38,213 bases of DNA from the NCBI GenBank assembly GCA_026397405.1, contig JAPLUW010000002.1, positions 1-38,213 on the forward strand, in the 5' to 3' direction. Origin of the DNA: Candidatus Adlerbacteria bacterium (GTDB lineage: Bacteria > Patescibacteriota > Minisyncoccia > Phycocordibacterales > SBAW01). A model generated the notes under the pieces. The model ran no database searches. It saw only the letters and a program-made list of their open reading frames with translations, and was not told the DNA's origin. Below, in pieces: positions 5,517-37,036 of this stretch; positions within the stretch are counted from its first letter, which is position 1; each line of letters opens with the position of its first letter. The translations under genes and the position numbers were made by a program.

Positions 5517-5545
5517 TTGACGTAGGAGTATATTTATAGTATTAT
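5517..5545 (+). promoter_or_regulatory. sigma70-type promoter of the GtrA-like gene
   Basis: TTGACG-17 nt-TATTAT; SD AAGGAG before ATG 5583. Confidence 0.65.
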
Positions 5546-5582
5546 TCAGCTAAGTAATCTGATCTTTCACAAGGAGCGTTAG

Positions 5583-6146
5583 ATGGGTTTTTTCAGTAGA
5601 TGCCATAAGAGCAGTCTCCTGCGGGAGCTGCAAACGCGGGGGACAATGTGTCTCCCAAAGAGATACAGGCAACCGACTCGTACTGCTTGCAAATACTGGA
5701 TCTGCAATGGCCTGGGGATTTTCTTTAGCCTTCTACTGGCTGAGAAGCTTATCCATGCGGGTGTTCATTACAGACTTGCGATGGTTGGGGGCGCTTTTGC
5801 GCAAGCTGTGATCGCGACCCCACTCAACGCGGCGTGGACCTTTAAATCAGAACTGGGTCTGTCGCTCAGCCCCAAGATGGTTCTGAGGGGTGCAGTTGTG
5901 GATCTTGCTGGGTGGGCGGGGGCAGAAGTAATTGTGTCGGTGGAAATCGACATTCTCGCCAGCGCATGGAACCTGGAGTGGCTGGGAGATTTCTTGGTCG
6001 CACGAGGGATCTCAGTTGTACTCATGGGCTACCCTCTGTACTTGTTTGATCTTTGGTACACGTTTAAGAGGCCGCTGAAGGACCTCCCACCGGTCGCCCT
6101 GGCCCGCCGCGTGTACGCCAAACTCCGCTCGACACTTGTTCTATAA
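5583..6146 (+). CDS. GtrA-like small membrane protein (divergent)
   Basis: Four hydrophobic segments; KY..CNG.G, LNAAWTFK and LWYTFK repeats typical of GtrA; SD AAGGAG. Confidence 0.55.
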   Translation: MGFFSRCHKSSLLRELQTRGTMCLPKRYRQPTRTACKYWICNGLGIFFSLLLAEKLIHAGVHYRLAMVGGAFAQAVIATPLNAAWTFKSELGLSLSPKMVLRGAVVDLAGWAGAEVIVSVEIDILASAWNLEWLGDFLVARGISVVLMGYPLYLFDLWYTFKRPLKDLPPVALARRVYAKLRSTLVL

Positions 6147-6174
6147 ACTCCACAGAATTTGCTGTGGGGTTTTT
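6145..6174 (+). terminator. Intrinsic terminator (+)
   Basis: AAACTCCACAG...CTGTGGGGTTT followed by T run. Confidence 0.7.
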
Positions 6175-6180
6175 ACATAT

Positions 6181-6209
6181 AAAAAAGAAACCGCCCAAGT
6201 CTTGGGCGG
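6181..6209 (-). terminator. Intrinsic terminator (-)
   Basis: CCGCCCAAG/CTTGGGCGG hairpin followed on the minus strand by TTTCTTTTTT. Confidence 0.85.
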
Positions 6210-6222
6210 AGTGTTGCAAAGT

Positions 6223-6753
6223 CTATGTTGTTGCTGAATCGGCCTTCTCCGAAGGTTCGAATCGGCGATCTTTGAACAAGAGTCCACTACCGATGATATA
6301 TCCTTGAGGATTGGTGGTAGTCGAGTTCCAAACGCAATCCCACGTACCTGCAAGTGTTGGCTTGCCGGTCGGATAGATGAAATGGATGAAGTACCGATGA
6401 CCGTCGATCCAGAGTGAAGAACGACGTTGTCCGTGAGCTTGCCAGTCGCGCTCTCCAAATTTCTCCAGAAAAAAACCTTTGACTCTAACAGACACAAGGT
6501 CTGAGGTCTGGCCGACAAGGAGGGTTTTCATCTCCATCTCAACCTCCATCAACTGCCGAGCCATTCCGTTTTTTCCCTCTGGAAGCAATCGGTAGGAGAT
6601 CTTAAGATCCTTCGGTTGCGACTGCGCTTCAGTGATGACTTGAAGCGCAAGCGAAACGAGCCGCTGTGCTTCGAGTACACCACTGTTTTGATGGTAGGTG
6701 CCGTTTTTAAACAGGTTGTCGAGGAACTCCCCGGCAAGGCTTCGAATAGTCAT
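6223..6753 (-). CDS. Hypothetical protein (ORFan-like)
   Basis: 176-aa ORF with SD-like GAAAGGG, promoter TTGATT-17-TAGTCT (6836-6808) and its own terminator. Confidence 0.7.
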   Translation of the reverse strand: MTIRSLAGEFLDNLFKNGTYHQNSGVLEAQRLVSLALQVITEAQSQPKDLKISYRLLPEGKNGMARQLMEVEMEMKTLLVGQTSDLVSVRVKGFFLEKFGERDWQAHGQRRSSLWIDGHRYFIHFIYPTGKPTLAGTWDCVWNSTTTNPQGYIIGSGLLFKDRRFEPSEKADSATT

Positions 6754-6851
6754 CTGTAGCCCTTTCGAGAAAAGCTGCTTTAGGAGGGCAGCGGAACCTC
6801 TGCCGCAAGACTACGTTTTTAAGTAGAAGAAATCAACAGGTTTAAATTCAG

Positions 6852-7146
6852 CTCCGCGACCAGGACTCGAACCTGGAACCAACTCCTTACACGTGACCCC
6901 AAACTTACGTAAGGGCGTGGACTATATCATCACCCGTTCTGGGTGCGAGGCGCTTCGTCCCGAACTTCGGGACTACTTCCATTTGGAATAGTCTCTGAAC
7001 CTTTCCCCAGAGTGGGGACTTGGCTGCTGATTGCCCTTCTTAATTTAAGAATAGGGTTTCCAGACAATTCACCTCGTTTGCAACCCACATTCCTGTGGGA
7101 GGCTGCCTATCGACAGGGAGCTGCTCTACCATTGAGCTATCGCGGA
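6852..7146 (-). tRNA. trnN: tRNA-Asn(GUU), intron-containing: exons 7146-7113 and 6889-6852
   Basis: Joined exons give TCCGCGA TA GCTC AATGGTA GAGC A GCTCC CT GT|T AA GGAGT TGGTT CCAGG TTCGAGT CCTGG TCGCGGA G: a full cloverleaf with anticodon GTT and discriminator G; CCA not fully encoded. Confidence 0.95.
6890..7112 (-). ncRNA. Group I self-splicing intron (223 nt, no ORF, IA-like) at anticodon position 35/36
   Basis: P1 CUGU|C-GAUA-GGCAG with U-G at the 5' splice site; P AATTGTCTGGAAA, Q AATCAGCAG, R TCAGAGACTA, S GATATAGTCC; P3 GAGGTG/CGCCTC; P7.1 and P7.2 hairpins; terminal omega-G at 6890. Confidence 0.93.
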
Positions 7147-7229
7147 ATAATGGCCAAAATTGACCTGAAAAAAGTATACGGTATCTTGTCTCTATCAGCA
7201 AACATAACACCTGGTGTTATAATGGGAGA

Positions 7230-7574
7230 ATGATACTCAAGAGTTGTAAAAAACATAAAGAGACAAAACATTTTCCACGACCAGACGGCTCTTTTAGATG
7301 TGGCAAATGTGCTTCTGAATGGGTAATTAAAAACCGAAGAAAAAAGAAAGAAAAACTCGTCGAACTTTTTGGTGGAAAGTGCTCAGTGTGTGGGTATAAA
7401 AAATACGCAGGAGCGCTTGATTTCCATCATATAAACCCAAAGAACAAAGAGTTTGCTTTAAGCGTGAAAGGTCTTTCATATAGCTGGGAAAGTTTAGTAC
7501 AGGAGGCAAAAAAATGTGTTCTGGTATGTAAAAATTGTCATACAGAAATTGAGGCAGGATTAACAACTCTGTAG
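7230..7574 (+). CDS. Free-standing zinc-binding HNH-family endonuclease
   Basis: CxxH/CxxC N-terminal finger, GGKCSVCGY, ALDFHH, CVLVCKNCH; AT-rich; TGTTATAAT 6 nt before ATG. Confidence 0.85.
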   Translation: MILKSCKKHKETKHFPRPDGSFRCGKCASEWVIKNRRKKKEKLVELFGGKCSVCGYKKYAGALDFHHINPKNKEFALSVKGLSYSWESLVQEAKKCVLVCKNCHTEIEAGLTTL

Positions 7575-8245: not shown

Positions 8246-8271
8246 AAAAAAAAGAGCCGCCCTTGAGCGGC
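8246..8271 (-). terminator. Intrinsic terminator (-)
   Basis: GCCGC...GCGGC hairpin followed on the minus strand by TCTTTTTTTT. Confidence 0.75.
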
Positions 8272-8278
8272 CCAACGT

Positions 8279-9151: not shown

Positions 9152-9319
9152 GTAGCCCCCTTTCTGGTAGTTGGTTTTTTTGTACAGCCTCTATCACGAT
9201 ACGAAAAAGTAACTGAATTTCACCTGAAGGTATAAAATTGACTACTTGTAATTTGCGTGATATATATTTTAGGAGAACGTGAACATCTAGTGGCCGATAC
9301 TCTCGGCGGAGGCAAGAAA

Positions 9320-9667
9320 ATGGGGGATGTGGTGTATTTACGCCAAGGGGATAGAGACGCTTCTTCTGTTTTGCAAGTTATTTCTGTCGCGGAGGAAGTC
9401 GTGTTGCAAGGGAAATTATTTCATCTTGCGGCGGATTTGTCTCAGAGGCTTCGAGAGTTGGGAGTGTATGATCCTCAAAAAATCTATCCACCTCGGAAAC
9501 TCCTGAAGTACTATTCTAATGAGGACTTGATCTACTGGTTGAGCAGGGCAACAGATCGACCGCGTTTGCTTGTGACACAAACCGCCTTTTTCCAAGCGTT
9601 GGTCGAGGAAGCAGCAGTGCCAGTGCGTCGCCTCATACTTCTTCCCCAGCCGTCCTCCTCGGAGTGA
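9320..9667 (+). CDS. Hypothetical protein (ORFan-like)
   Basis: ATG 9320 with SD GGAGG; promoter TTGACT-17-TATATA (9238-9266); own terminator. Confidence 0.65.
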   Translation: MGDVVYLRQGDRDASSVLQVISVAEEVVLQGKLFHLAADLSQRLRELGVYDPQKIYPPRKLLKYYSNEDLIYWLSRATDRPRLLVTQTAFFQALVEEAAVPVRRLILLPQPSSSE

Positions 9668-9682
9668 CGGCTTTTCTTTTTT
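9648..9682 (+). terminator. Intrinsic terminator (+)
   Basis: AGCCGTC CTCC-TC-GGAG T GACGGC followed by TTTTCTTTTTT. Confidence 0.8.
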
Positions 9683-12811: not shown

Positions 12812-13825
12812 GTGGCGTTTTTTACTCCAAAACTTGGCATTGACTTAGGTACGGCAAATACACTCGTGTTTGTGCCTGGCCGTGGCGTTGTGTTAAACGA
12901 GCCATCAGTTGTAGCAATTTCAGAAATCGACAGGCGCATTTTGGCGGTTGGTTCTGAAGCAAAAGAAATGATAGGCCGCACTCCAGGCGAAATTATCGCA
13001 TACCGCCCACTTAAAGACGGCGTCATTTCCGACTACCGCGTGACGCAGGCAATGCTACGTTATTTTATAAGCAAAGCGATGGGACGCTTTCAATTTTTTA
13101 AACCCGAAGTGATGGTGTCGGTGCCGACAGGCGTAACGTCAACCGAACGCCGCGCCGTTGTGGAAGCCGCTATACGCGCTGGCGCAAAAAATGCGTACGT
13201 GGTTAAAGAGTCGGTGCTCGCGGCAATTGGTGCAGGTATTCCAATTCAGGAGCCCCGCGGCAACATGGTTGTCGACATCGGTGGCGGCACGTGCGACGTG
13301 GCGGTGATTTCCTTGGGTGGCATTGTTGCGTCAACGTCTGTTAAATGTGGCGGCGACAAACTCGACCACGCCATTGCCGACTATATTAAAAAAACATACA
13401 ACTTAGGCATTGGTGAGAAAACTGCCGAAGATGTAAAAATTGGCATCGGCTCGGCAGTGCCGATGGAAGAAGAGTTGGTGATGACCGTGCGCGGCCGTGA
13501 CTTTATCACTGGCCTGCCACGCAGCACAGAACTTAAAACAAACGACCTGGTTAAAGCGATGGGTAAGGAACTGCGCGAAATAATTAAAGCAATTCGCGAC
13601 GTGTTGCAGGAAACTCCGCCTGAACTTGCCAGCGACATTATTGACCGTGGGATTATCATGACCGGCGGCACGTCGATGTTGCGACACTTCCCAGAGCTTG
13701 TCTTCCGCCGCACAGGAGTAAAAGCAAAAGTCGCCGACGACCCGCTGTTTTGCGTAGCGCGCGGCACGGGCATTGCACTTGACCACTTAGACACCTACAA
13801 AAAAGCTATTATTGCTAAGCGATAG
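12812..13825 (+). CDS. mreB: MreB/Mbl actin-like rod shape protein (stand-alone paralogue)
   Basis: IDLGTANT, EPSVVA, DIGGGT, TPPEL, TGG. Confidence 0.95.
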   Translation: MAFFTPKLGIDLGTANTLVFVPGRGVVLNEPSVVAISEIDRRILAVGSEAKEMIGRTPGEIIAYRPLKDGVISDYRVTQAMLRYFISKAMGRFQFFKPEVMVSVPTGVTSTERRAVVEAAIRAGAKNAYVVKESVLAAIGAGIPIQEPRGNMVVDIGGGTCDVAVISLGGIVASTSVKCGGDKLDHAIADYIKKTYNLGIGEKTAEDVKIGIGSAVPMEEELVMTVRGRDFITGLPRSTELKTNDLVKAMGKELREIIKAIRDVLQETPPELASDIIDRGIIMTGGTSMLRHFPELVFRRTGVKAKVADDPLFCVARGTGIALDHLDTYKKAIIAKR

Positions 13826-14584: not shown

Positions 14585-15265
14585 GTGACCCCGAAAAAAC
14601 TAACAGAACGCAAAGAGCGAATTTTAAAGCTGGACAGAGCTCTCAAGAAACTATACCCAAACCCAACTATCGAATTGAACTTTAGCAATACGCTTGAGCT
14701 TTTAATTGCCGTACAGCTTTCGGCACAGTCCACCGACAAAAACGTAAACAAAATCACTGAAAAGCTGTTTAAAAAATATAAAACTCTGGACGACTATGTC
14801 CATGCAGGGAAGACACAAAAAAACATAAACGAATTTGAACAAGATATATTCGCATCCGGTTTTTACCGTGCAAAGGCAAAAAACATCCTGAGGGCTGTCA
14901 ACATAATTAAGAACGAGTTTGGTGGGGAAGTGCCACGCACTATTGAAGAGTTGTTAAAGTTGCCTGGTGTTGCGCGCAAGACAGCAACGGTTGTGCTTGC
15001 AACTGCATTTGGAGTTGTTGCAGGGATTACTGTCGACACGCATGTTATACGGTTTGTGCAGCGGTACGACCTTTCAGACTTTAAAGACGCTGTGCGCATT
15101 GAGCGCGATTTAATTCAACTGCTACCCAAAAAAGAGTGGTCTACGTTTACGCACCGCGTTATACACTACGGCCGCTACCTGGCCCCGGCCCGCGCGTATG
15201 ACACTACTAAAGACCCGCTTGTAAAAATCTACCCTAAGGCAGCGAATAAATTTAGAACCTCTTAA
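14585..15265 (+). CDS. nth: Endonuclease III (HhH-GPD), apparently lacking the C-terminal 4Fe-4S cysteine motif
   Basis: LLIAVQLSAQ.TD, LPGVARKTA, VDTHV; no Cys cluster at the C-terminus. Confidence 0.93.
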   Translation: MTPKKLTERKERILKLDRALKKLYPNPTIELNFSNTLELLIAVQLSAQSTDKNVNKITEKLFKKYKTLDDYVHAGKTQKNINEFEQDIFASGFYRAKAKNILRAVNIIKNEFGGEVPRTIEELLKLPGVARKTATVVLATAFGVVAGITVDTHVIRFVQRYDLSDFKDAVRIERDLIQLLPKKEWSTFTHRVIHYGRYLAPARAYDTTKDPLVKIYPKAANKFRTS

Positions 15266-15297
15266 AAGCAAATAGTGCGCTATGTTATGATACGTAT

Positions 15298-15849
15298 ATG
15301 GCATACGACTTTAAACCTTTCGACGCGCGTATTAAAGAAATTAGTGAACACGTAGTACTAGAAATGGCCGGCATCCGCACCGGGCGTGCGGCACCAACAA
15401 TTTTGGATGGTGTGCAGGTTGAAAGCTACGGCACCCGCATGCCGATAAACCAAGTTGCAAATATCTCTATTGAAGACGCCCGCACGTTGCGCATCACCCC
15501 ATGGGATGCCAGCCAGGCAAAAGAGATTGAAAAAGCTATTGTCCAGGCAAACCTTGGTATTTCTGTTGGGGCAGACGAAAAAGGTGTCCGTGTATTTTTC
15601 CCTGAACTCACATCCGAACGCCGTACGACATTGGTAAAATTGGCAAAAGAGCGTATTGAAGAAAGTAAAACATCTTTGCGTGTTGCCCGCGACGAAGTGT
15701 GGTCGGACATCCAAAAAAAGGAACGTGACGGAGAGATGCCCGAAGACGACAAATTCCGTAACAAAGACGAAATGCAAAAAAAGGTCGACGCAGCAAACAA
15801 GGCATTTGACGAAGTACTTGCACGGAAAGAAAAGGAAATCTCAGGCTAA
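15298..15849 (+). CDS. frr: Ribosome recycling factor
   Basis: IRTGRA, YG...PINQVANI, PELTSERR. Confidence 0.97.
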   Translation: MAYDFKPFDARIKEISEHVVLEMAGIRTGRAAPTILDGVQVESYGTRMPINQVANISIEDARTLRITPWDASQAKEIEKAIVQANLGISVGADEKGVRVFFPELTSERRTTLVKLAKERIEESKTSLRVARDEVWSDIQKKERDGEMPEDDKFRNKDEMQKKVDAANKAFDEVLARKEKEISG

Positions 15850-17057: not shown

Positions 17058-17103
17058 AAAAAAAGAAACCCCGTCGCAATCCGGTTAAGGACGGCGACGG
17101 GGG
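17058..17103 (-). terminator. Intrinsic terminator (-)
   Basis: CCCCGTCGC...GCGACGGGG hairpin followed on the minus strand by TTTCTTTTTTT. Confidence 0.85.
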
Positions 17104-18170: not shown

Positions 18171-18223
18171 TTCACAACCTTGTCAATATAGAGTGTGGCT
18201 AACACCCAGGAACAACCTTTACA

Positions 18224-18252
18224 ATTGTAGCATATTTGATATCAAAAGTCAA
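18224..18252 (-). promoter_or_regulatory. sigma70-type promoter
   Basis: TTGACT-17 nt-TACAAT with extended TG. Confidence 0.8.
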
Positions 18253-18262: not shown

Positions 18263-18300
18263 AAAAAAAGAAAGCCGCTCCAGGTGTTACTGGAGCGGCT
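18263..18300 (-). terminator. Intrinsic terminator (-)
   Basis: AGCCGCTCCAG/CTGGAGCGGCT 11-bp stem followed by TTCTTTTTTT. Confidence 0.88.
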
Positions 18301-19026: not shown

Positions 19027-19080
19027 TTAGATATTCCTCTGAGAGATATGCCTGGCTAAAGGCGATGTACGGCCGAAAGC

Positions 19081-19109
19081 ACATTAACATAATACTTTAA
19101 TAAAGTCAA
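19081..19109 (-). promoter_or_regulatory. sigma70-type promoter
   Basis: TTGACT-17 nt-TAATGT. Confidence 0.6.
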
Positions 19110-24792: not shown

Positions 24793-24824
24793 AAAAAAGA
24801 CCCCTCGCAAAAGGGGTCTTTTTT
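24793..24824 (+). terminator. Intrinsic (bidirectional-looking) terminator
   Basis: AAAAAAGACCCCT-CGCAAA-AGGGGTCTTTTTT. Confidence 0.9.
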
Positions 24825-26303: not shown

Positions 26304-26334
26304 AAAAAAAGAAAACCACCTTACGAGAAGGCGG
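26304..26334 (-). terminator. Intrinsic terminator (-)
   Basis: Minus strand CCGCCTT-CTCGT-AAGGTGG followed by TTTTCTTTTTTT. Confidence 0.75.
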
Positions 26335-26348
26335 CGACGAACGGAACA

Positions 26349-26681
26349 TTACGAAGCTTCGGCTGGGGTAGTGCCGACTAGAACCCCGTCAGGGCAGTCT
26401 TTGCCGCCTCTGCTGATATGGGGCCCGAGTCTATACGGCTTCTTGTCGATAGTTGCTGCCCAACCCTCGTGAACACGTTTGATCGCTTCTTCGTAAGGAA
26501 GTTCTGGTGTCACTACACAGGCCGAGCCCGTGGTTTTGTCATGCCAAGTTGCTCCCGGTACTGGGGTTGGTTTATGTAGAGCGTTCCCTGCACTGAGTGC
26601 GCTGACAAGAATAAGTGCGGCGATAAGTCCGTACTCCAAGTTCATTTCTACGCTTCCCCAACAAAATAAAAAACAGAACAT
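26349..26681 (-). CDS. Small membrane-anchored protein with Flp-pilin-like segment
   Basis: SD AAGGAG before ATG 26681; LEYGLIAALILV helix; two Cys in the C-terminal part. Confidence 0.6.
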   Translation of the reverse strand: MFCFLFCWGSVEMNLEYGLIAALILVSALSAGNALHKPTPVPGATWHDKTTGSACVVTPELPYEEAIKRVHEGWAATIDKKPYRLGPHISRGGKDCPDGVLVGTTPAEAS

Positions 26682-26763
26682 TTCGAACTCCTTTTTAGTT
26701 GTACTACGCATGGTTTCTGTGTGTCAAATAAACCGTGAAGTTCGTAGCTTTATGAAGCTTTTA

Positions 26764-26831
26764 TGTGGATAACTTTATGCGGGGAAGTGGGGCAAAATGT
26801 CATATACTGGTGAGTAGTGGGATGAAGTGGG
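26764..26831 (+). promoter_or_regulatory. mraZ/dcw promoter with MraZ boxes and a DnaA box
   Basis: GTGGG at 26787, 26817 and 26827 (10-nt phase); TATACT 26803-26808; TGTGGATAA (DnaA box consensus) 26764-26772. Confidence 0.8.
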
Positions 26832-26846
26832 ATACCCGCGAACTGT

Positions 26847-27281
26847 ATGCTCATTGGCGAATATCTACATACTCTGGACAGCAAAAAGCGTCTTTCGCTT
26901 CCCGCAAAATTTAGGAAGGAGGTTGGTCGTAAAGTTGTTATTACGCGCGGTTTGGACGCTTGTTTGTTTATGTTCCCGCAAAAGTCGTGGGACAAAATTG
27001 CCGAAAAGTTGGCGAACCTACCCATTGGCCAGGCAGACACACGAGGTATGAGCCGTTTCCTGCTTTCTGGCGCAGTAGAGACAGACGTCGACAGTGCGGG
27101 CCGCATTTTGGTACCAGACTTCCTTAAAGACTTTGCCGACCTACGTTCGCGTGTTGTTTTGGCAGGAGTTTCGGACCGTATTGAAATGTGGAACGAAAAG
27201 ACCTGGGAAGAATATAAACGCCGCATTGAAAAAAGCGCTGACCAGATGGCGGAAAAAATGGGTGACTTAGGAATCCTTTGA
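26847..27281 (+). CDS. mraZ: Division/cell wall cluster transcriptional repressor MraZ
   Basis: GEY.HTLD.K.RLSLPAKFR, D.AGRIL.P, GV.DRIE.W. Confidence 0.97.
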   Translation: MLIGEYLHTLDSKKRLSLPAKFRKEVGRKVVITRGLDACLFMFPQKSWDKIAEKLANLPIGQADTRGMSRFLLSGAVETDVDSAGRILVPDFLKDFADLRSRVVLAGVSDRIEMWNEKTWEEYKRRIEKSADQMAEKMGDLGIL

Positions 27282-27286
27282 CATAT

Positions 27287-28273
27287 ATGACTGCACATTC
27301 TTTTACTTCTGTTCGTGTCCGGAGCAGCCTCTTGCGAGAGGAGGGCAGCTCTGCCCGCGAACAGAAGCAAGGGAAGGTGGATCCTGCTTCGGCTCACACC
27401 AGCGTAATGCTGGAAGAGGTTTTGCAATATTTAGATGTCAAAAAAGGTGAACAGGTTCTCGACGCAACAGCAGGGCAGGGTGGCCATTGTTACGCGATAC
27501 TAAAAAACACTCCCGGCTCCCGTGTGCTTGCACTCGACGCCGACCCTGTGTCGGTAGACTTGGCTGGAAAGCGACTTGCCCCATTTGGCGAACGTGCGCA
27601 AGTAGTTGAAGCAAATTTTGGTGATATTGAAAAAGTTATCAAAAAGCAGGGTATTAAAACAATTGATAAAGCACTCTTTGACCTAGGGTGGAACTCCGGC
27701 CAATTAGGCCTTGGAAGAGGTTTTTCATTTTTAGTAGATGAGCCGCTCGACATGAGCTACGGCACACAGTCTGCTTCAAGTTTTACTGCAGCCGAAGCGT
27801 TAAATGAATGGGAGGAAGAGACTCTTGCGAATGTTTTTTATGGGTACGGCGAAGAGCGCTACGCGCGCCGTATTGCCAAAGCAATAGTTGAACGTCGCGA
27901 GACTAAGCCCTTTGCCACAACTCTTGAGTTGGTGGAAGTTGTGCGGGACAGCACTCCAAGTGCCTACCACCGCGGCCGCCTCCACTTTGCAACACGCACA
28001 TTCCAAGGGTTGCGCATGGCTGTTAATGACGAACTTGGGGTTATAAACCGTGGGGTAACGTCCACGTGGGAGCACTTGTCGCCCGGCGGCCGTATTGCGG
28101 TCATAACGTTCCATAGTATTGAAGACCGCGCGGTTAAGCGATTGTTTGCCGACTTTGTGAAAGGTGGTGGACGTTTAGTGTTTAAAAAACCACTGGTGCC
28201 ATCCCGGGCCGAGGTTGTGGCAAACCCCCGAGCCCGCAGCGCCAAACTCCGCGTTATTGAAAAATCTCTCTAA
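27287..28273 (+). CDS. rsmH: 16S rRNA m4C1402 methyltransferase RsmH with N-terminal insertion
   Basis: HTSVMLEE, DAT.GQGGH, DLG, FQ.LR.AVN.EL, FHSIEDR, NPRARSAKLR. Confidence 0.96.
   Translation: MTAHSFTSVRVRSSLLREEGSSAREQKQGKVDPASAHTSVMLEEVLQYLDVKKGEQVLDATAGQGGHCYAILKNTPGSRVLALDADPVSVDLAGKRLAPFGERAQVVEANFGDIEKVIKKQGIKTIDKALFDLGWNSGQLGLGRGFSFLVDEPLDMSYGTQSASSFTAAEALNEWEEETLANVFYGYGEERYARRIAKAIVERRETKPFATTLELVEVVRDSTPSAYHRGRLHFATRTFQGLRMAVNDELGVINRGVTSTWEHLSPGGRIAVITFHSIEDRAVKRLFADFVKGGGRLVFKKPLVPSRAEVVANPRARSAKLRVIEKSL
27298..27375. repeat. Palindromic element in frame in the rsmH 5' end
   Basis: TTACTTCTGTTCGTG (27303-27317) / CGCGAACAGAAGCAA (27356-27370); inner GGAGC/GCTCT and CCTCT-TGCG-AGAGG. 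Confidence 0.7.
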
Positions 28274-28596: not shown

Positions 28597-30308
28597 TGAA
28601 CAAACGGTTTCTTGGGAGGGTGCGGATGCTGACGCTCTTTTTTGTAACGGTCTCGCTCGTGCTTGTAGGCCGGCTTTATTTTTTGCAAATTGTGCGTGGT
28701 CCTGCATATACCACTCGTGCCGACGCACAATTTACTGAACCTGCAACGTCTCTTCCTACCCGCGGTATTATATATTTTAGCGACAACGCAGGTACAGAAA
28801 TCGCTGCGGCAGTAATAAAAGACGGCTTTGCTATTGCAGTAAACCCTACCAAGGTCACCGACGCAGAAGCCTTGTGGACAGCTCTCCAGGGAGCCGTTAC
28901 GCTTTCGCACGACGCATTTATAGCAAAAGCAACTAAGTCGGGGAGCCAGTATCAACTGGTGGCGCAGCATTTAAGTGGTGATGTTGGTGAGGCGCTCCAA
29001 GCAAAACAACTTCCTGGGCTTATTGTGCAGCAAGACAGATGGCGTTCGTATCCGGGGGGCTCGCTTGCCGCACAAGAAATTGGGTTTGTTGCCTACAACG
29101 GAGGTGACAGCCAGGAAGGCCGCTATGGGCTGGAGCGCCAGTACAACCAGACACTTGAACGCAGCGCCCAAGACCTGTACAAAAACTTTTTTGTCGAACT
29201 CTTTGGTGGGGTCAAGTCGGTGCTTGAAGGCGCTCCCCAAGAAGGCGATATCATCACTACGATAGAGCCGTCGGTACAAAGCGAACTTGAACGCCAGTTG
29301 GCACTGTACGACAGCACATGGCACCCAAAACTTGCGGGCGGCATTATCATGAACCCGCAAAATGGCGAAATATACGCGATGGCTGTAGCGCCGACGTTTG
29401 ACCTCAATGCGTTTAACTTGCAAACTAACCCGCTTGTGTATGCAAACCCCCTTGTGCAAAACGTGTACGAAATGGGTTCGATTTTTAAACCGCTTACAAT
29501 GGCAGCCGGTATAGACTCGGGCGCGGTGACAGAAAATACGACCTACAACGACACAGGTTCTATAACAGTTGACGGTAAAAAAATTTCAAACTTCGACTTT
29601 AAAGCGCGTGGGGTGATACCGATGCAGCAAATTTTGAGCCAGTCGCTCAACGTCGGTGCGTCGTTTGTTGCCACACGCATGGGCTCAGCAACGATGCGTA
29701 ACTATTTCCTCGACCACTATGGGCTAGGGTCAACGACAGGTATCGACATGCCGGGGGAAGTCCGCGGTATTGTCGGCAACTTGTCGTCGCCCCGCCAGGT
29801 CGAATATGACACAGCGTCGTTTGGGCAAGGTATCGCCAACACTCCTGTTGAAACAGTGCGTGCGCTTGCAACGCTTGCAAACGGCGGCTACTTGGTAACC
29901 CCTCACTTGGTCCGTGCAATACGCTACACGGTTGGTATCACCAAACCAATTTCACTCCCGGAAAAAGTGCAGGTACTAAAACCAGAAACGTCTACCACCG
30001 TAAGTCGCATGCTTACTGCTGTTGTCGACACGGCACTCGCTAAAGGGGAAGACAAGATAGAGCATTACAGTGTTGCGGCCAAAACGGGCACAGCCCAAAT
30101 TGCAAACCCTTCGGGTGGGGGCTACTATAGCGACAGGTTCCTGCACAGTTTTGTTGGGTATTTCCCGTCGTACAACGCAAAATTTATTGTATTTTTGTTC
30201 GCAGTAGAACCTGTCGGCGCGCCGTATGCGTCGACTACACTTGCACCTCCTTGGCACGAACTAACACAGTTTCTTATCAACTATTACAACGTTCCTCCTG
30301 ACAGATAG
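28596..30308 (+). CDS. ftsI: Peptidoglycan D,D-transpeptidase FtsI (PBP3)
   Basis: RG.I, G..GLE..Y, GSIFK (SxxK), SLN (SxN), KTGT; dcw context. Confidence 0.9.
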   Translation: MNKRFLGRVRMLTLFFVTVSLVLVGRLYFLQIVRGPAYTTRADAQFTEPATSLPTRGIIYFSDNAGTEIAAAVIKDGFAIAVNPTKVTDAEALWTALQGAVTLSHDAFIAKATKSGSQYQLVAQHLSGDVGEALQAKQLPGLIVQQDRWRSYPGGSLAAQEIGFVAYNGGDSQEGRYGLERQYNQTLERSAQDLYKNFFVELFGGVKSVLEGAPQEGDIITTIEPSVQSELERQLALYDSTWHPKLAGGIIMNPQNGEIYAMAVAPTFDLNAFNLQTNPLVYANPLVQNVYEMGSIFKPLTMAAGIDSGAVTENTTYNDTGSITVDGKKISNFDFKARGVIPMQQILSQSLNVGASFVATRMGSATMRNYFLDHYGLGSTTGIDMPGEVRGIVGNLSSPRQVEYDTASFGQGIANTPVETVRALATLANGGYLVTPHLVRAIRYTVGITKPISLPEKVQVLKPETSTTVSRMLTAVVDTALAKGEDKIEHYSVAAKTGTAQIANPSGGGYYSDRFLHSFVGYFPSYNAKFIVFLFAVEPVGAPYASTTLAPPWHELTQFLINYYNVPPDR

Positions 30309-31794: not shown

Positions 31795-32442
31795 ATGAGT
31801 CAAAAAACAATTATCGGTATAGGATCTTTACTTATTCTTATTGCTCTCGGCACATACAGCTATACACACTACACGCCACCAGCGTCGACTACAGTTTCAA
31901 ACGCAGACGACTCTGCAATACGGGCTGTGGTAGAAGACTACAGCAAAACACTCGGGGAAGGCCGGCTCGACATTGTGTCTGTCACGCCGCGGGCTTCTGG
32001 GCGCGCATTTGAGTCGTACCAAGTAGAAGCGAATATGATTGTGATGGACGTGTCTCAAGCAAATGGGGAAGTTCCCGTTGGTGTGCAGCCACTTTCGCTC
32101 ACGGTTGAAAAACAGGGGAGTGCGTGGGTAGTAACAGCATTTACCAAAGGCGCATACAGCGAACTCCCTCACAGCCAAACCATTGTAGGTTTTTGGGAAT
32201 GTTTGCCACACAAAAACACAAGTGGCCCGCAAACTACAGAATGTGCATTTGGCATAGCTCGCGACCAAAGTGACGGACACTATGCGATAGATACGTCGCT
32301 CATGTCGACCTATCCTGTAGACTTTGCAACTGGTACCAAGGTGCAGGTGACAGGCATTGTCACACCGGCAAACCAATTAAGTAGTGTGCAAAAATATGAC
32401 ATCGACGGCGTTATACGTGCCACAAGTATTGTAAAAATATAA
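31795..32442 (+). CDS. Hypothetical membrane-anchored/secreted protein
   Basis: N-terminal TM; CLPH...QT.ECAFG motif; TACACT 6 nt before ATG. Confidence 0.8.
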   Translation: MSQKTIIGIGSLLILIALGTYSYTHYTPPASTTVSNADDSAIRAVVEDYSKTLGEGRLDIVSVTPRASGRAFESYQVEANMIVMDVSQANGEVPVGVQPLSLTVEKQGSAWVVTAFTKGAYSELPHSQTIVGFWECLPHKNTSGPQTTECAFGIARDQSDGHYAIDTSLMSTYPVDFATGTKVQVTGIVTPANQLSSVQKYDIDGVIRATSIVKI

Positions 32443-32481
32443 AAAGAAAAAAGCGGTTGGATTTTTAGGTCCTTCCGCTTT
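32441..32481 (-). terminator. Intrinsic terminator (-)
   Basis: AAAGCGG...CCGCTTT stem; minus-strand tail TTTTTTCTTTTT. Confidence 0.65.
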
Positions 32482-32490: not shown

Positions 32491-32760
32491 CTAGTAGTAG
32501 CGAACGACAGTTGTTCTGTGCCAACGTCGTGCACGGACAACTGGTGCTGGGTAGTAAGCCACAGGTGCAGGCTCTATATATGCCGACCGGTAGTATGTCA
32601 CCGTTGAAGTCGGTGGCGGTGGTGGAGCCGGAGCCACATCGTACACGACCGTCCTCTGCGGAGGGGGTGCGTCGTACATCACCGCTGGCCTGACCTCATA
32701 AATGGCGCACCCACCGAGGGCTACCGGCAGTATCAGGCAAGCCAAAAGAACTTGTCGCAT
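32491..32760 (-). CDS. Small Pro/Tyr-rich lipoprotein
   Basis: Lipobox LGGC after a hydrophobic signal; SD GGGAG; promoter TTGACT-17-TATAGT (32819-32791). Confidence 0.75.
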   Translation of the reverse strand: MRQVLLACLILPVALGGCAIYEVRPAVMYDAPPPQRTVVYDVAPAPPPPPTSTVTYYRSAYIEPAPVAYYPAPVVRARRWHRTTVVRYY

Positions 32761-32820
32761 GTACGTCTCCCAAGATGAGAATCCTATAAAACTATAGGAC
32801 TTTTTTAACTCTTAGTCAAC

Positions 32821-33320: not shown

Positions 33321-34421
33321 ATGACGCAAATACTTATAGGGCTGTTGATACTTATTGCACTCGGCAACGGTGCATTTTTATACATGTTGTGGAAAAAAGG
33401 CCAGGAGCCTGCTGCTGTGCCTCCAACCGACACGCAGGGGATGCTTTTGCTCCAAAACCAACTTGCAGAGCTTACTCGTGCGATGGACAACAAGCTTGGG
33501 GAAGGCACCAAGACAATGTCCGACTTTATGTCGAGCCAAACAAACCAGGGCCACCAGTTGATGAGCACCATTACCAAACAAGTGCAGGAACAGTTGCTTG
33601 AAGTGGTTAAGGGCGTGACCGAAACAAAAGAGTCGACCAAGCAAGTCTTTGTTATCGCCGAACAATTGAGCAATTTGGAAAAAGTGTTGAAGAACCAAAA
33701 ACAGCGCGGTAACTTGGGCGAGGCCAGCTTGGAACTTGTGATGAGCAACATCTTGCCCCCGGGCGCGTACGCGATGCAGTTTGAGTTCCCAGGAGGGGAG
33801 ACAGTCGACGCAATAATCCGCACAAAAGAAGGGTTTATCCCTGTGGATGCAAAATTCCCGCTCGAAAACTACACTCGTATCCATGACGAAAAAGACGACG
33901 AACGCCGTAAGGAATTTGAAGAGGCATTTAAGCGCGACTTAAAAAAGCGTATCGACGAGACAAGTAAATATGTGCGACCTAAAGACGGTACATTGCCGTT
34001 TGCGTTTATGTATATCCCAGCCGAAGGAATTTATTACGATTTGTTGAACGACGGCATTGGTGCGGTAAACACTCGCAGCTTACTGGACTACGCGCAGAAT
34101 GAGAAAAAGGTAATTATTGTCTCGCCTACAACATTTGCCGCGTACCTGCAGTCGGTGCTGTACGGCTTTAAAGCATTTAAAATTGAAGAGCAGGCAAAAG
34201 ACATTGCAAAAAATGTCGAAGCACTCGGCCGGCACATTAACGCGTACCAAGACTATTACAAGAAGCTGGGAGCGTCGCTTTCCACCACGGTGAACCACTT
34301 TAACGCGGGTACCAAAGAGCTGGGAAAGATAGAAAAAGACGTACTCAAAATCGACGCATCGGCTGATATTGCAATAGATATTGCCGTTATCGACCGACCA
34401 CTTATAGAGGGGAAGGATTAA
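33321..34421 (+). CDS. rmuC: DNA recombination protein RmuC
   Basis: RGNLGE..LE, VDAII, PVDAKFP, FMYIPAEGIY, SPTT. Confidence 0.92.
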   Translation: MTQILIGLLILIALGNGAFLYMLWKKGQEPAAVPPTDTQGMLLLQNQLAELTRAMDNKLGEGTKTMSDFMSSQTNQGHQLMSTITKQVQEQLLEVVKGVTETKESTKQVFVIAEQLSNLEKVLKNQKQRGNLGEASLELVMSNILPPGAYAMQFEFPGGETVDAIIRTKEGFIPVDAKFPLENYTRIHDEKDDERRKEFEEAFKRDLKKRIDETSKYVRPKDGTLPFAFMYIPAEGIYYDLLNDGIGAVNTRSLLDYAQNEKKVIIVSPTTFAAYLQSVLYGFKAFKIEEQAKDIAKNVEALGRHINAYQDYYKKLGASLSTTVNHFNAGTKELGKIEKDVLKIDASADIAIDIAVIDRPLIEGKD

Positions 34422-34456
34422 AAAAAAGAAAAGGCCGGACTTCTTCGTCCGGCCTT
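34420..34456 (-). terminator. Intrinsic terminator (-)
   Basis: AAGGCCGGAC/GTCCGGCCTT 10-bp stem followed by TTCTTTTTTTT, overlapping the rmuC stop. Confidence 0.88.
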
Positions 34457-34464: not shown

Positions 34465-34911
34465 TTAAACTTTGCTTGCCTCGTCGAAGAGAGACTCGAC
34501 CAGCTTTGTGTATTGAGGTGCCCAGTCTCGAATGATAGTCAGAGTGTGGACCGCCTCGCGGTCTTCGCGAATGAGGCGAAGGAGCTCGGCACGACCTTTT
34601 TGGGCCAGCTCTCGGCCTATCCTCGACCCAAACCACCGCCCACCAAAGGTGCAGACGATGAGGACCACTGAAATGAGGCCCACCACGAGCCACAGGTCAT
34701 TCGTGGGATCTGTGAGGAAGGTAGGCTTCCATTTGAGCGTTATCGCCCCGATGAAAACTAGTGCGATCACCATGCCGAACAAAGCCCCTTTTGCAGCGTT
34801 CTGCTCGTTAATGCTGATTGAGGAGAACAGCCGTTTCAGTTCCGCGGACCTGCGCTCAACCTCCTGTAGAGCCGCTTGCCTCATTTTGGCATTGGCGTCG
34901 ACATGTGCCAT
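34465..34911 (-). CDS. Hypothetical two-TM membrane protein (ORFan-like)
   Basis: 148 aa with two TM segments; SD-like AAAGGG; promoter TTGACC-17-TACAAC (34990-34962). Confidence 0.7.
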   Translation of the reverse strand: MAHVDANAKMRQAALQEVERRSAELKRLFSSISINEQNAAKGALFGMVIALVFIGAITLKWKPTFLTDPTNDLWLVVGLISVVLIVCTFGGRWFGSRIGRELAQKGRAELLRLIREDREAVHTLTIIRDWAPQYTKLVESLFDEASKV

Positions 34912-35035
34912 GAAGTACCCTTTTTTCGGTTGAAGGCGTCGAGGGACGTACCTCTGGCGTAGTTGTACCTATAAAAATAAGCCAGGTCAACCCGACTTGC
35001 ATAAAAAGCCCTTTTTAGGTATATTGTTTCGGTCT

Positions 35036-35374
35036 ATGGCAACTAAAGAAATGGCAAAGGAGTTCGCAATAATCGAGACCGGAGGCAAGCAATATCTTGT
35101 CGCGGAAGGCGATACCCTCAAGATCGAAAAACTGATGGGCGACCACAAAGTGGGCGACTCGGTTGCGTTCGACAATGTCCTCCTTGCTCAACATGGCGAG
35201 GACACAACCATCGGCACACCTTATATTAAGGGTGCAAAAGTCTCTGCAGAAATTTCAAAAATCTCTCGTGCAAAGAAAGTCGTCGTTATCAAATACAAAG
35301 CAAAGAGCAACTATTTTAAAAAGCGCGGCCATCGCCAGCCATTTTTTGAGGTAAAAATCTCAAGCATCAAATAA
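35036..35374 (+). CDS. rplU: 50S ribosomal protein L21
   Basis: FAIIETGGKQY.V..GD, KKRGHRQPF. Confidence 0.96.
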   Translation: MATKEMAKEFAIIETGGKQYLVAEGDTLKIEKLMGDHKVGDSVAFDNVLLAQHGEDTTIGTPYIKGAKVSAEISKISRAKKVVVIKYKAKSNYFKKRGHRQPFFEVKISSIK

Positions 35375-35396
35375 TCCGCCATTCGGCGGGTTTTTT
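35373..35396 (+). terminator. Intrinsic terminator
   Basis: AATCCGCC-ATTC-GGCGGGTT followed by T run. Confidence 0.8.
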
Positions 35397-35400
35397 GTTT

Positions 35401-36246
35401 TTACAAATCGCGACCAAAGTAGAGCCAGTCTTGGCCTACGGCTGCGTCGAATTTGGGCATAATAATGTACCCGTCGTGCGGGGCGACTACAGGTTTGTTT
35501 TTTGTATTGATAAGCGCAGCACCTTTTTTGACTCGGTCCATATGCTTCCAGGTGGGGTTGGCAAGGGCCTCTCCTTCGTTCCTAAAAAAACCGTTGGTTA
35601 TTTTTGCTAATGCTGGTTTGTAGTTGTGGGTTTGTTCGGCAACTAGCGCATAGTGCGCAAGCGTGTTACGTACGGCGTTGTATGCAACACCTGTAGCGCT
35701 TGCTGCCTTGTGCTGGCCACATTCGACAAGGAGCGTGTCTTTGCCGCGGCTGTGTGCGTACGTGGTTGTATCAAAGGATGTGTGTGATTTGCCAAACTTT
35801 TTATACAACTCGGGCCACCCCACGACAGCACCTGTTGGCCCCAGTACCTCTGCCCACGCGCGGTTTGTTTTGGTAGGGAAGTCGAGGTACATAAACGGCT
35901 CGCCTTTTGCCGTTGTGGAATGTATGTCGAGCAGTACGTCGCACTGGTCGACTAAGTTGCATAACACGTTTGCCATCTGTGCCTCGTAGGAACGGGGAGT
36001 TTTAGTTGGTTTAAAAATACGGTTTAAATTTTCCTCTGTAAGGCGGAGGTTTTGTGCATATGCGGCAGGATTGCATACAGGTACAAATGTTGCACTGCCT
36101 TTTTGGAGCTGCAACTTGCCTGAATCAAGTTCTTTCATCACCTGTGCGAGTGCGCGTGGGCCGCATACTTCGTTGCCGTGTATGGCACCAAAAAAGAGCA
36201 CGTGGGGCCCTTTGTTGAGCGAGGTATATGTGTACGTTTGTATCAT
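35401..36246 (-). CDS. Succinylglutamate desuccinylase/aspartoacylase (M14) family protein
   Basis: HGNE, NLNR.F, LLDIHST, VECGQH; start placed at MIQTY with TATGAT 6 nt upstream. Confidence 0.9.
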   Translation of the reverse strand: MIQTYTYTSLNKGPHVLFFGAIHGNEVCGPRALAQVMKELDSGKLQLQKGSATFVPVCNPAAYAQNLRLTEENLNRIFKPTKTPRSYEAQMANVLCNLVDQCDVLLDIHSTTAKGEPFMYLDFPTKTNRAWAEVLGPTGAVVGWPELYKKFGKSHTSFDTTTYAHSRGKDTLLVECGQHKAASATGVAYNAVRNTLAHYALVAEQTHNYKPALAKITNGFFRNEGEALANPTWKHMDRVKKGAALINTKNKPVVAPHDGYIIMPKFDAAVGQDWLYFGRDL

Positions 36247-36273
36247 AGGGTAATCATATGCTCGATTAGAAAT

Positions 36274-36309
36274 AAAAAAAGGGGAAGGGGTTTGACCCGC
36301 CTTCCCCTT
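36274..36309 (-). terminator. Intrinsic terminator (-)
   Basis: AAGGGGAAGG/CCTTCCCCTT stem followed by a T run on the minus strand. Confidence 0.8.
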
Positions 36310-36320
36310 GTATGCCCGTG

Positions 36321-36908
36321 CTACGCGGCCGTGTGCCTGTCCACCCAGTTTGCTTCCCAGCCCATCCGCTGTGCCGTTTCCGGAGTCACCCGCACGTAAC
36401 AGGTCATTGGTCCGCGTTGTTGTGGTTCCCGCCAAGCAAGCGTGCAGCTCGAGGGCTCCATAGAGCCAGTCTTCTGTGCCGAACAAATGCAGGTTGCGGC
36501 AAGTTCCGCGGGAGGGAGCCATGTTCGCGGAATTACAACGAACGAAAAATGTGTGCCTACCCGAAGGGCCTGAATACTTGTGGTTGTGACAAGGATATTC
36601 CTGTGTGCGTGGCCTGGCAGGAAACGTTTGTACGCGGCTTGATTTATTTTTTTTCCTCGCAGGTCGGCGCGCGTCCATGTACCGCCAAGTTCAAACCACG
36701 TGAGCAGGGGAGTAAGGCAGGTGTGGAAGACAACGTCTCCCTCCCAAAAACCCAACATAGAAAGCCCATTGTTGTAACGCGTCAGCAGGTCCTCTGCCGA
36801 TGTTGCAAGCAAGTGAGGCTCATCACATGTGGCTTGTGCTACGCGTTTGAATACTTCCATTCCAACATTCGGTTTAGTAGCAACCGTATAGAACTGAATG
36901 CCGTCCAT
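36321..36908 (-). CDS. GNAT-like acetyltransferase (divergent) with Cys-containing C-terminus
   Basis: FELGGTWTRADLRGKKIN resembles GNAT motif A; SD GAGGG; own terminator. Confidence 0.6.
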   Translation of the reverse strand: MDGIQFYTVATKPNVGMEVFKRVAQATCDEPHLLATSAEDLLTRYNNGLSMLGFWEGDVVFHTCLTPLLTWFELGGTWTRADLRGKKINQAAYKRFLPGHAHRNILVTTTSIQALRVGTHFSFVVIPRTWLPPAELAATCICSAQKTGSMEPSSCTLAWREPQQRGPMTCYVRVTPETAQRMGWEANWVDRHTAA

Positions 36909-37036
36909 GTTTATTTCCCTCTAGGTATGTCGGCGCTTGTGTGCGTCCTAAGGAACAATAGTAAAAGAGAAGCGTTGCAACAAATTTTCTAGTTTTTTTG
37001 ACAGATATATTGCAATTTGTTATAAAAATAACAACT

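Follow-up and report, generated by a model that had tools for sequence, protein, structure and literature searches.

The first 38,213 bases of contig 2 of a two-contig Candidatus Adlerbacteria genome (G000; 637,775 bp, 91% complete, GC 0.485), a stretch referred to below as the window, contain ten dispersed open reading frames (ORFs; C1 to C10, Table 1) whose expression signals differ from those of the conserved genes around them: each is preceded by a purine-rich box resembling a Shine-Dalgarno (SD) motif and followed by a terminator of its own, in an organism whose 16S rRNA gene has lost the complementary anti-SD core. Genes with such boxes are a distinct class throughout this genome, tied to non-conservation and strongly non-random. 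The reading preferred here, with a probability of roughly 0.5, is that the ten ORFs are species-specific accessory islets carrying an SD-type, foreign-style grammar of expression, and that they entered the genome by transfer, through recombination at the boundaries between operons.

In the window, the purine-rich box ends 5-9 nucleotides (nt) before the ATG of all ten candidates, and a G+C-rich hairpin with a T-run follows each of them within 60 nt. The strength of a box was calculated as the duplex energy (dG, in kcal/mol) of positions -20 to -3 with the canonical anti-SD, not with the organism's own 16S tail. This dG is -6 or lower in seven candidates (C2, C5 and C9 being weak) as against 3 of the 37 other protein genes in a curated table of 47, and -8 or lower in four; for comparison, among decoys, 9249 internal start triplets reach dG <=-6 with a frequency of 0.078 and dG <=-8 with a frequency of 0.020, and for 7796 intergenic start triplets the two frequencies are 0.107 and 0.038. 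A strict terminator (a hairpin of at least 6 bp with at least 4 G-C pairs, with a T-run) follows six of the ten candidates and 3 of the 37 other genes, whereas a -10 box of the leaderless type precedes none of the candidates and 14 of the others. The ORFs, the SD-like motifs and the separate terminators noticed in a first-pass annotation of the window are all present where it placed them. Its further claim that most units have a TTGAC-type promoter holds for seven of them: motifs of the form TTGAC(N)-17/18-TAnnn(T/C) precede C1, C4, C5, C6, C7, C8 and C9, including one that it had considered weak (C7), whose motif sits too near its box for a full leader; C2 has only a TTGATT version, and inspection reveals no promoter for C3 or C10. 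The units sit singly or paired in a few slots between operons of a syntenic backbone, and eight of the ten are on the minus strand within a plus-strand backbone, which bears out the description of genes wedged antisense between housekeeping genes.

The single 16S rRNA gene has the tail GGAACAAUUCAAUU at the place of the bacterial consensus GGAUCACCUCCUUU, and CCTCC is absent from the whole gene. The CCUCC core is absent from all 18 genomes of the order that could be read, namely this genome and 17 of 17 relatives, which represent the same genus as well as at least 11 further families (the tail of another member, G132, gave no reading). Among 30 loci sampled from other orders and classes of the phylum, two gave no anchor and the 28 readable tails all contain CCTCC. 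Since the core has been lost across the order and kept in the remainder of the phylum, the loss is specific to this order. This check of the anti-SD, suggested with the first-pass annotation, is decisive for the interpretation of the boxes: with the anti-SD lost, any role of these rare boxes cannot rest on the usual pairing. The genome also lacks a general enrichment of the motif before its genes, there being no upstream rise in G and a depletion in conserved genes, and the only feature of canonical SD initiation that the candidates possess is a GGAGG-like box 5-10 nt upstream; the mature 3' end of the 16S rRNA is here the one predicted from the gene. According to the accessible sections of two surveys, SD-scarce genomes without CCUCC occur in Ca. 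Wolfebacteria, Ca. Campbellbacteria, SR1 and Peregrinibacteria (PMC10783764), residual "SD" genes amount to 2-8% in the organisms of Table 4 (PMC10783764; PMC6107228), and organisms that lack the anti-SD generally lack SD motifs too (PMC6107228). At contig 1, 150406-151856 (minus strand), a conserved hairpin with a GUAC loop, in which compensatory changes are found among relatives, lies about 20 nt after the 16S tail, and AAUUCA of the tail is complementary to UGAAU just past this hairpin; a processing stem may therefore hold the altered tail.

For analysis of the whole genome, genes and starts were taken from a purpose-built, simple dicodon gene finder (626 genes, 85.5% of the genome), and a gene was considered conserved if tblastn gave a match with E <=1e-3 over at least half of its length, the whole-genome comparators being G009 (78% identity in a tRNA synthetase) and G018 (58%). 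A box with dG <=-8 at any admissible start precedes 31 of the 167 genes that match neither comparator (7.9 expected from decoys), 4 of the 67 that match one (3.0 expected) and 10 of the 392 that match both (15.9 expected); for no match versus a match in both, the Fisher odds ratio is 8.7 (p = 4e-10). With unambiguous starts only, strong boxes precede 12 of 101 non-conserved genes and 1 of 265 conserved genes (8/65 and 1/208, respectively, for genes of at least 450 nt). Among genes with unambiguous starts that look leadered, the counts are 10 of 54 and 0 of 79, contrary to what would be expected if SD-plus-terminator architecture were equally common in conserved genes. SD-core 4-mers peak at positions -11/-10 of non-conserved genes (48 observed, 16.4 expected from the genes' own flanks) and are depleted in conserved genes (30 observed, 56.5 expected). 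The same trend is found in G009 (24 of 138 non-conserved genes versus 16 of 400 conserved genes, p = 2e-6) and in G018 (53/244 versus 28/392, p = 2e-7, although at GC 0.62 the chance rate exceeds the assumed expectation). That the boxes are a product of chance, purine-rich 4-mers being common and lucky ORFs having been picked by eye, is scarcely credible: about 10-11% of control windows do contain a loose 4-mer box (16 and 15 of 143), some of the ten boxes are weak, and a promoter scan of the window is not above shuffles (29 versus 18.6 +/- 4.7 and 13 versus 16.0 +/- 4.2), but the tests that do not depend on the choice of ORFs are strongly positive, recur in two other genomes and contradict it.

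The 31 genes of the SD class differ from other genes in several further respects. A strict terminator follows 16 of them, compared with 35 of 180 conserved genes that are last in a run, 20 of 116 accessory genes without a box and 14 of 600 random windows; 11 of the 31 are antisense to both neighbours (28 of 392 conserved genes) and 21 look monocistronic (91 of 392). They are also somewhat richer in G+C (GC3, the G+C content of third codon positions, is 0.558 versus 0.495) and have lower native coding scores. The co-occurrence of box, terminator, placement and non-conservation throughout the genome and in two relatives upholds the earlier proposal that these are a distinct class of modules. The terminators themselves are of two types, a split that is unexplained by orientation: in accessory genes the T-tract is broken by C (TTTTCTTTT) in 17 cases and by G in 8, whereas in conserved genes it is broken by C in 3 and by G in 32 (p = 2.5e-6). 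The corresponding C/G counts are 7/8 for accessory and 1/30 for conserved genes in G009, and 44/16 and 19/32 in G018. The native form is a palindrome, CAAAAA-stem-TTTTTG, in which G follows the T-run, as after greA (24795-24822).

The resident genes follow a grammar of their own. Upstream of 409 genes with unambiguous starts, G is depleted, T peaks at -12 and A at -11, the frequency of T at -1 is 0.60, and TAnnnT begins exactly at -12 in 69 cases; 153 of these genes are coupled to the preceding gene, 112 are leaderless-like and 143 belong to neither class. Core genes either look leaderless, with a -10-type box ending about 6-7 nt before the start and a pyrimidine at -1, or overlap or couple to the preceding ORF, and they lack an SD motif (an example, frr, is in Table 1). 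Conserved genes that are leadered use leaders other than the SD box. A conserved pyrimidine-rich leader ending in ...TTCTCTCACTCaCTAGaTT-ATG precedes proS (window 19155-19239, plus strand; this label is used here for a class II aminoacyl-tRNA synthetase) and occurs again at contig 1, 24406, 338020 and 456427 (the last on the minus strand) and at contig 2, 116729 (minus strand); the genes behind it, according to their N-termini, include ones like ribosomal protein L2, ribonucleotide reductase and UvrA, as well as GroEL in G009. In G001 and G006, proS is leaderless instead. This sequence possibly serves leadered core genes as their native means of loading ribosomes or of regulation.

Comparison with relatives indicates that the candidates turn over while their surroundings persist. 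The backbone is kept in 7-10 of the ten relatives compared, and 24 of the 37 other window genes, as against none of the ten candidates, are shared by at least three of them. The slot between HPF and fmt is 1440 nt long here, compared with 9-18 nt in G006, G017 and G013 and 91 nt in G009; the rseP-proS slot is 2185 nt long here and 12-51 nt in G019, G006 and G001; the rmuC-rplU slot, which holds C9, is 576 nt long here, compared with 14 nt (G015) and 37 nt (G009); and the rplU-recR slot is 2314 nt long here and 24-81 nt in G013, G004 and G015. Thus, at four slots, conserved flanks enclose variable content and empty alleles exist, which is not the picture of genes carried syntenically by all relatives; in other relatives the slots hold different ORFs, some with SD-like boxes. 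The arrangement is no assembly artefact, because contigs from the sequencing runs of other studies span the joints between C6 and proS and along hyp215-C8-yqeY-rmuC-C9. Contigs of four DNA runs match most pieces at 99% identity or more and show only that cassettes are contiguous with their neighbours; they contain no joints of empty sites at the level of the population.

Relatives of the candidates are few, and those that exist are often in the same slot. None was found for C1, C4 or C7 in the syntenic stretches compared. C3 has an orthologue in G015 (69% identical, same slot; L030/L031, concatenated ~29271-30205), which is split over two frames (residues 1-60 and 53-290) and is possibly a pseudogene or the result of a sequencing frameshift; elsewhere in the sample of the phylum, identity to C3 does not exceed 33%. 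C5 has an orthologue in the same slot of G015 (29%), 13 relatives among 5.8 billion proteins (metagenomic) and, in a sample of 300 other genomes of the order, weak matches in four. C6 has relatives in the same slot of G013 and G004 (37%), which carry it with few others: it was detected in 5 of 301 genomes belonging to the order and in none of 400 from elsewhere in the phylum. Close relatives of C6 have the source name Candidatus Adlerbacteria, and its wider family is large and diverged (207 cluster representatives at E <=1e-3, with clusters at 50% identity). C10 has a partial relative in the same slot of G009 (27%), with a AGGAGGGGG box of dG -10.8, and is found in 2 of 80 genomes of the genus. 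Searches of the complete G009 and G018 genomes with profiles of the C5 and C6 families gave no match.

The one gene informative on origin lies outside the window, where a gene of the SD class encodes a short-chain dehydrogenase (SDR; contig 1, 285529-286269). SDR genes are present in 49 of 301 genomes of the order (including one unpublished genome, G267), but these are at most 39% identical to it, and an SD-like box precedes only one of the 28 examined. Its best named relatives are from Proteobacteria, Bacteroidota and Cyanobacteria (44-49%), five unnamed proteins are 52-78% identical, and a search of species genomes for a donor gave at most 37% identity. These distances fit a probable import of the SDR gene from outside the order.

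The same comparisons bear on the possibility that the candidates are native, fast-evolving genes, that is, old vertical residents (for example surface, host-interaction or nucleotide-signal enzymes) that have diverged too far to be detected and whose grammar is a regulatory class. The relatives of C3, C5, C6 and C10 in identical slots, at 27-69% identity, and the 207 clusters of the C6 family are what would be expected of such genes, as are the G+C content of the class, which follows that of the host (see below), and the lack of mobile-element genes and repeats; nevertheless, this explanation is improbable, since several relatives, the nearest (G009) among them, have genuinely empty slots (9-91 nt), the C5 and C6 profiles are blank in two whole genomes, the SDR of the SD class is nearer to other phyla than to its own order, and the spread of C6 and C10 is patchy.

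On the preferred reading, each unit would be autonomous, with a usual -35/-10 promoter, a leadered mRNA, a GGAG-type box and its own terminator with a C-interrupted T-tract. The SD-type grammar would mark genes that enter and turn over through horizontal transfer, most simply by DNA uptake followed by recombination at operon boundaries, and their source would be a gene pool formatted for ribosomes that use SD motifs; the remainder of the phylum keeps CCUCC. In the host, which would be expected to have a 16S rRNA ending in ...AAUUCAAUU, such genes would be translated as any leadered mRNA is, without SD-anti-SD pairing, and the box would therefore be mostly inherited rather than required. The first-pass annotation had invoked an unrecognised route of acquisition, for which there is no need: uptake and recombination yield islets between conserved flanks, and the genome encodes ComEC (no DprA was found). 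The RNA-mediated insertion that it had listed among the options does not agree with units that include their promoters.

Nothing in the window points to a mobile element, and the earlier report that no integrase, att site or terminal repeat is visible there was correct: Pfam scans found no integrase, only short chance pairs of direct repeats or att-like sites flank the cassettes, and phage genes are absent. Outside the window, the sole tyrosine recombinase gene of the genome (contig 1, 283084-286849 region) adjoins an islet of four non-conserved genes, three of them in the SD class (an unknown protein, the SDR and a NUDIX protein); because the recombinase gene is conserved in both G009 and G018, a housekeeping role of the Xer type is suggested. 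That the units are cargo of mobile elements, whether phage morons, prophage remnants, integron-type cassettes or insertions by a site-specific recombinase, is very unlikely. The islet beside the recombinase could be cited in its favour, and so could the layout of promoter, gene and terminator with deviant composition, which is that of morons, but PHROGs gave one weak match among the ten (C8, 0.00069), INPHARED and IMG/VR had no match for C5 or C6, and the recombinase appears to have other duties. Specifically, integron cassettes are contradicted by the units' own promoters and ordinary T-run terminators and by a recombinase that is elsewhere and conserved; morons and prophage remnants by the lack of a phage location and by these searches for phage relatives; and an origin in phage or defence systems by there being no more than the C8 match and a single weak PADLOC match (C9 to LeoBC, 0.00088). 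The capture of phage early genes, put forward in the first-pass annotation, is disfavoured by the same searches. Its more speculative suggestion that the genes are formatted for another cell, so that a host bacterium receiving their DNA or RNA would express them with its SD-using ribosomes, is barely conceivable; it draws only on the mismatch between the boxes and the organism's own 16S rRNA, the genes have no associated machinery or signal for transfer, and several of their products resemble membrane proteins or lipoproteins with ordinary signal sequences, or are enzymes of housekeeping type.

Several observations weigh against import. No donor was found for any of the window genes searched (C5, C6 and C3), C5 having no match at all in the donor search of species genomes; those relatives of C5 and C6 that bear a name are Adlerbacteria. 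The G+C content of the SD class follows that of the genome in which it resides (0.518 versus 0.485, 0.545 versus 0.514 and 0.630 versus 0.621 in the three genomes), a pattern more in keeping with long residence, or with exchange among close kin, than with recent import from unrelated organisms. The class is a minority, 31 to 51 of the 167 non-conserved genes, the other 116 having no box and many of them being leaderless, and three of the ten candidates (C2, C5 and C9) carry weak boxes. In the C6 family, each of the seven members examined has an SD-like box, at protein identities of 28-43%, and this family therefore seems to hold its box under selection within a lineage that has no anti-SD; six of six relatives of C6 have the box, of which G236 and G052, being close kin, are treated as one. 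There are limits of method as well: the gene finder overlooked C4, C8 and C10 and shortened several other candidates, and conservation was assessed with two whole genomes and eight partial regions.

Retention of the box raises the tentative possibility of a second working initiation channel, in which the GGAG box is functional and leadered accessory genes are separately translated or regulated, as the separately translated regulon among the options of the first-pass annotation would be, the reader being something other than the 16S tail: a protein, another segment of RNA or an unstructured standby site. This proposal concerns function and is compatible with an origin by transfer. Among orthologues of C3, C5, C6 and C10 in other genomes, 10 of 13 have a box of dG <=-6 (decoys 0.08-0.11), including the six relatives of C6, whose family was met only inside the anti-SD-less order in the genomes searched; the sharp, canonical spacing of the box and the G+C content that follows the host likewise suit a function in residence. 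The proposal has to contend with the lack of CCTCC anywhere in the 16S gene, with the total absence of boxes from the 79 conserved leadered genes, with genes shared with a single relative that are unenriched (4 observed, 3.0 expected), and with the distant relatives of C5, whose boxes are weak (2 of 5 at dG <=-6). Three candidate modes of reading were rejected, two of which are further points against a second channel: an altered SD that matches the organism's own 16S tail, because upstream pairing to that tail is no stronger than in control windows; and a reader of the CsrA or bS21 type, because searches of the 91%-complete genome detected neither family (they did detect bS1). The third, placement of the box within a hairpin of the 5' untranslated region, was rejected because its pairing probability is 0.649 compared with 0.638 for shuffled upstream sequences (n = 31, p = 0.81). 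The fuller form of the idea, that the order lost its 16S anti-SD yet keeps a hidden reader of GGAGG boxes, with leadered accessory genes on a channel apart from the leaderless core, is rather doubtful; if true, retention of the box throughout the examined members of the C6 family would be the footprint of that reader.

The products of the candidates were said to be unrecognisable or highly divergent, and nine of the ten are indeed without a Pfam family above the cut-off. The exception is C3, a putative phosphatase with an Inositol_P domain (92.3 bits, cut-off 27), which is far below the cut-offs of all NCBIfam equivalog models, including CysQ and HisN. C5 has no match to the Pfam DHH family; its predicted model (pLDDT, the predicted local distance difference test score, 86) nevertheless resembles only proteins of the DHH superfamily, for all 34 fold matches listed at E <=0.001 belong to it, among them nanoRNase, pAp/pGpG phosphatase, GdpP, RecJ, exopolyphosphatase and family II pyrophosphatase. 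The template-modelling (TM) scores of these matches are just 0.15-0.28, reflecting a two-domain hinge. The residues D42, D44, D88 and D95-Q96-H97 are invariant in the C5 family, DQH replacing DHH, and together with the modelled fold they fit a phosphoesterase of the DHH/DHHA1 type. C1 and C9 appear to be membrane proteins, and C7 and C8 have the appearance of secreted proteins or lipoproteins. C2, C4, C6 and C10 have no assignable family in profile searches of Pfam, NCBIfam, PHROGs and PADLOC; the predicted model of C6 has a pLDDT of 64, and the ESM Atlas offered nothing usable for C6 or C2. Outside the window, 9 of the 20 genes of the SD class have Pfam families or weak domain matches (GNAT, M50, TPR, SDR, NUDIX, PG-binding, AIR-synthase-related and a sub-threshold receiver domain) and 11 have none. 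This cargo, with its membrane and lipoprotein-like proteins and two enzymes of nucleotide-phosphatase type, may bear on differences between strains of episymbiont-like bacteria.

Parallels to these arrangements exist in other systems. Actinobacteria and Deinococcus ("group C" of GeneMarkS-2) mix leaderless genes with SD-led genes, keep the anti-SD and use the SD in their core genes; this genome similarly has a -10 box near the start in one set of genes and an SD leader in another, but it has lost the anti-SD, and its SD set consists of accessory genes only. Phage morons are autonomous units of promoter, gene and terminator, of deviant composition, located between phage genes. The units described here are likewise single genes with their own promoter and terminator and deviant G+C content, wedged between conserved genes and often antisense, but they lie between housekeeping operons of a cellular chromosome, in a neighbourhood that contains no phage genes. 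Hotspots of transfer and islets are stretches of variable content between core genes of bacterial chromosomes, for which no integrase is needed. Variable content, conserved flanks and empty alleles are common to both, but here the slots contain one or two genes, and the cargo can be recognised by its signals for translation and termination alone. In Bacteroidetes, as described in the accessible part of PMC6847099, mRNAs lack SD motifs while the ribosome keeps its anti-SD; initiation on most genes is independent of SD there as here, whereas the anti-SD is retained there and lost here. Further counterparts are the SD-scarce prokaryotes of PMC10783764 and PMC6107228, which, as far as the accessible sections go, exhibit the same clade-wide loss of the anti-SD and no general SD signal; by comparison, the residual boxes described here are not noise, have canonical spacing, occur almost only in non-conserved genes and go together with another type of terminator. 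Those sections of PMC10783764 and PMC6107228 draw no link between residual SD motifs and gene age or transfer. No paper was found in which residual SD motifs are connected with the accessory genes of such lineages, although the supplementary tables of two papers, which possibly list this lineage, were outside the search.

If the association is general, canonical SD motifs together with the type of terminator would make it possible, wherever the anti-SD is missing, to pick out genes of recent acquisition or fast turnover by sequence alone, and this marker would be useful for the numerous uncultured Patescibacteria. Such lineages also provide a natural experiment on the fate of the SD motif once its rRNA partner has gone, whether it decays or is kept for another reason. 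Gene callers learn one model of the ribosome-binding site per genome, which here is a poor fit for both classes of genes; the several candidates that were overlooked or shortened by the purpose-built finder illustrate the need for caution.

Table 1. Coordinates in the window of the ten units and two other genes, with the signals and predicted products of each (dG as defined in the text; aa, amino acids)
Unit or gene	Span	Strand	Promoter motif	Box	dG	Terminator	ORF	Product and remarks
C1	5517-6174	+	TTGACG-17-TATTAT, 5517-5545	AAGGAG, 5571-5576	-8.2	6150-6174	5583-6146	187 aa, membrane protein; GtrA_DPMS_TM, E 0.0065, below cut-off
C2	6181-6836	-	TTGATT-17-TAGTCT, 6808-6836	GAAAGGG (weak), 6760-6766	-4.4	6181-6209	6223-6753	176 aa, no family; just downstream of intron-bearing tRNA-Thr
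C3	8246-9163	-	no clear promoter	AAAGGGGG, 9156-9163	-10.7	8246-8273, between converging HPF and C3	8279-9151	290 aa, inositol-monophosphatase/CysQ-type phosphatase; Inositol_P, 4.8e-26
C4	9238-9682	+	TTGACT-17-TATATA, 9238-9266	GGAGG, 9308-9312	-9.5	hairpin and T-run, 9649-9682	9320-9667, start inside ORF 9257-9667	115 aa, no family; uncalled by finder
C5	17058-18252	-	TTGACT-17-TACAAT, 18224-18252	AAGG (weak), 18178-18181	-4.0	17058-17102	17112-18170	352 aa, predicted DHH/DHHA1-type phosphoesterase fold; GC 0.59
C6	18263-19109	-	TTGACT-17-TAATGT, 19081-19109	AGAGGAA, 19034-19040	-6.0	18263-18300; example of accessory type, T-run broken by C	18319-19026	235 aa, no family; GC 0.61
C7	26304-26727	-	TTGACA-18-TACAAC, 26698-26727	AAGGAG, 26688-26693	-8.2	26304-26335	26349-26681, start inside ORF 26349-26711	110 aa, hydrophobic N-terminus
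C8	32441-32819	-	TTGACT-17-TATAGT, 32791-32819	GGGAG, 32767-32771	-7.3	imperfect hairpin and T-run, 32441-32479	32491-32760	89 aa, lipoprotein-like signal ...LGGC, proline-rich; uncalled by finder
C9	34420-34990	-	TTGACC-17-TACAAC, 34962-34990	AAAGGG (weak), 34918-34923	-4.5	34420-34456	34465-34911	148 aa, membrane protein
C10	36274-36922	-	no clear promoter	AGAGGGA, 36916-36922	-6.3	hairpin and T-run, 36274-36309	36321-36908	195 aa, no family; uncalled by finder
PAP2-family gene	4050-4631	+		GGGGGA before ATG	-8.6			PAP2 family (1e-07); possible eleventh member
frr	15262-15849	+	TATGAT box ending 7 nt before ATG	no SD		none of its own		native-grammar example

The plus-strand housekeeping backbone of the window, as identified by Pfam, consists of HPF, fmt, def, a murA-type gene, mreB, holB, nth, frr and rseP, followed by proS, mreB, mreC, PBP2, greA, lysS, mraZ, rsmH and ftsI, and ends with a mur ligase gene, yqeY, rmuC, rplU and recR. 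It is preceded, in window 1-5300, by a block of accessory genes related to the cell wall (a C39-like peptidase, a YkuD L,D-transpeptidase, a polysaccharide deacetylase and the PAP2-family gene of Table 1), which was not found in the syntenic stretches of relatives; the PAP2-family gene has no match in G009 or G018. Most of the accessory genes in this block have the native grammar of the leaderless type, and the SD class therefore does not include all accessory genes.

Next to C2, a 223-nt group I intron (RF00028, 84.6 bits), which spans 6898-7172 according to Rfam, interrupts the anticodon loop of a tRNA-Thr(UGU) gene (6851-7146, minus strand). Adjoining this gene is an ORF resembling an HNH endonuclease (7230-7574, plus strand), which is 83% and 80% identical in G009 and G006, respectively, higher than most core genes. 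The ORF at 6943-7233 overlaps the intron-bearing tRNA gene and is not a gene.

Readings based on the longest ORF are misleading at two places in the window. The ORF at 26750-27427 (minus strand) is displaced by mraZ (26847-27281) on the opposite strand. The AstE/AspA-like ORF at 35401-36678 (minus strand) has about 144 initial codons that look non-coding and most likely starts near 36246, and so C10 does not overlap the AstE-like gene. Two MreB paralogues are encoded at 12812-13825 and 20484-21533, and with MreC and transpeptidases of the PBP2 and FtsI types they make up a full set for rod shape and division despite a genome of 0.64 Mb.

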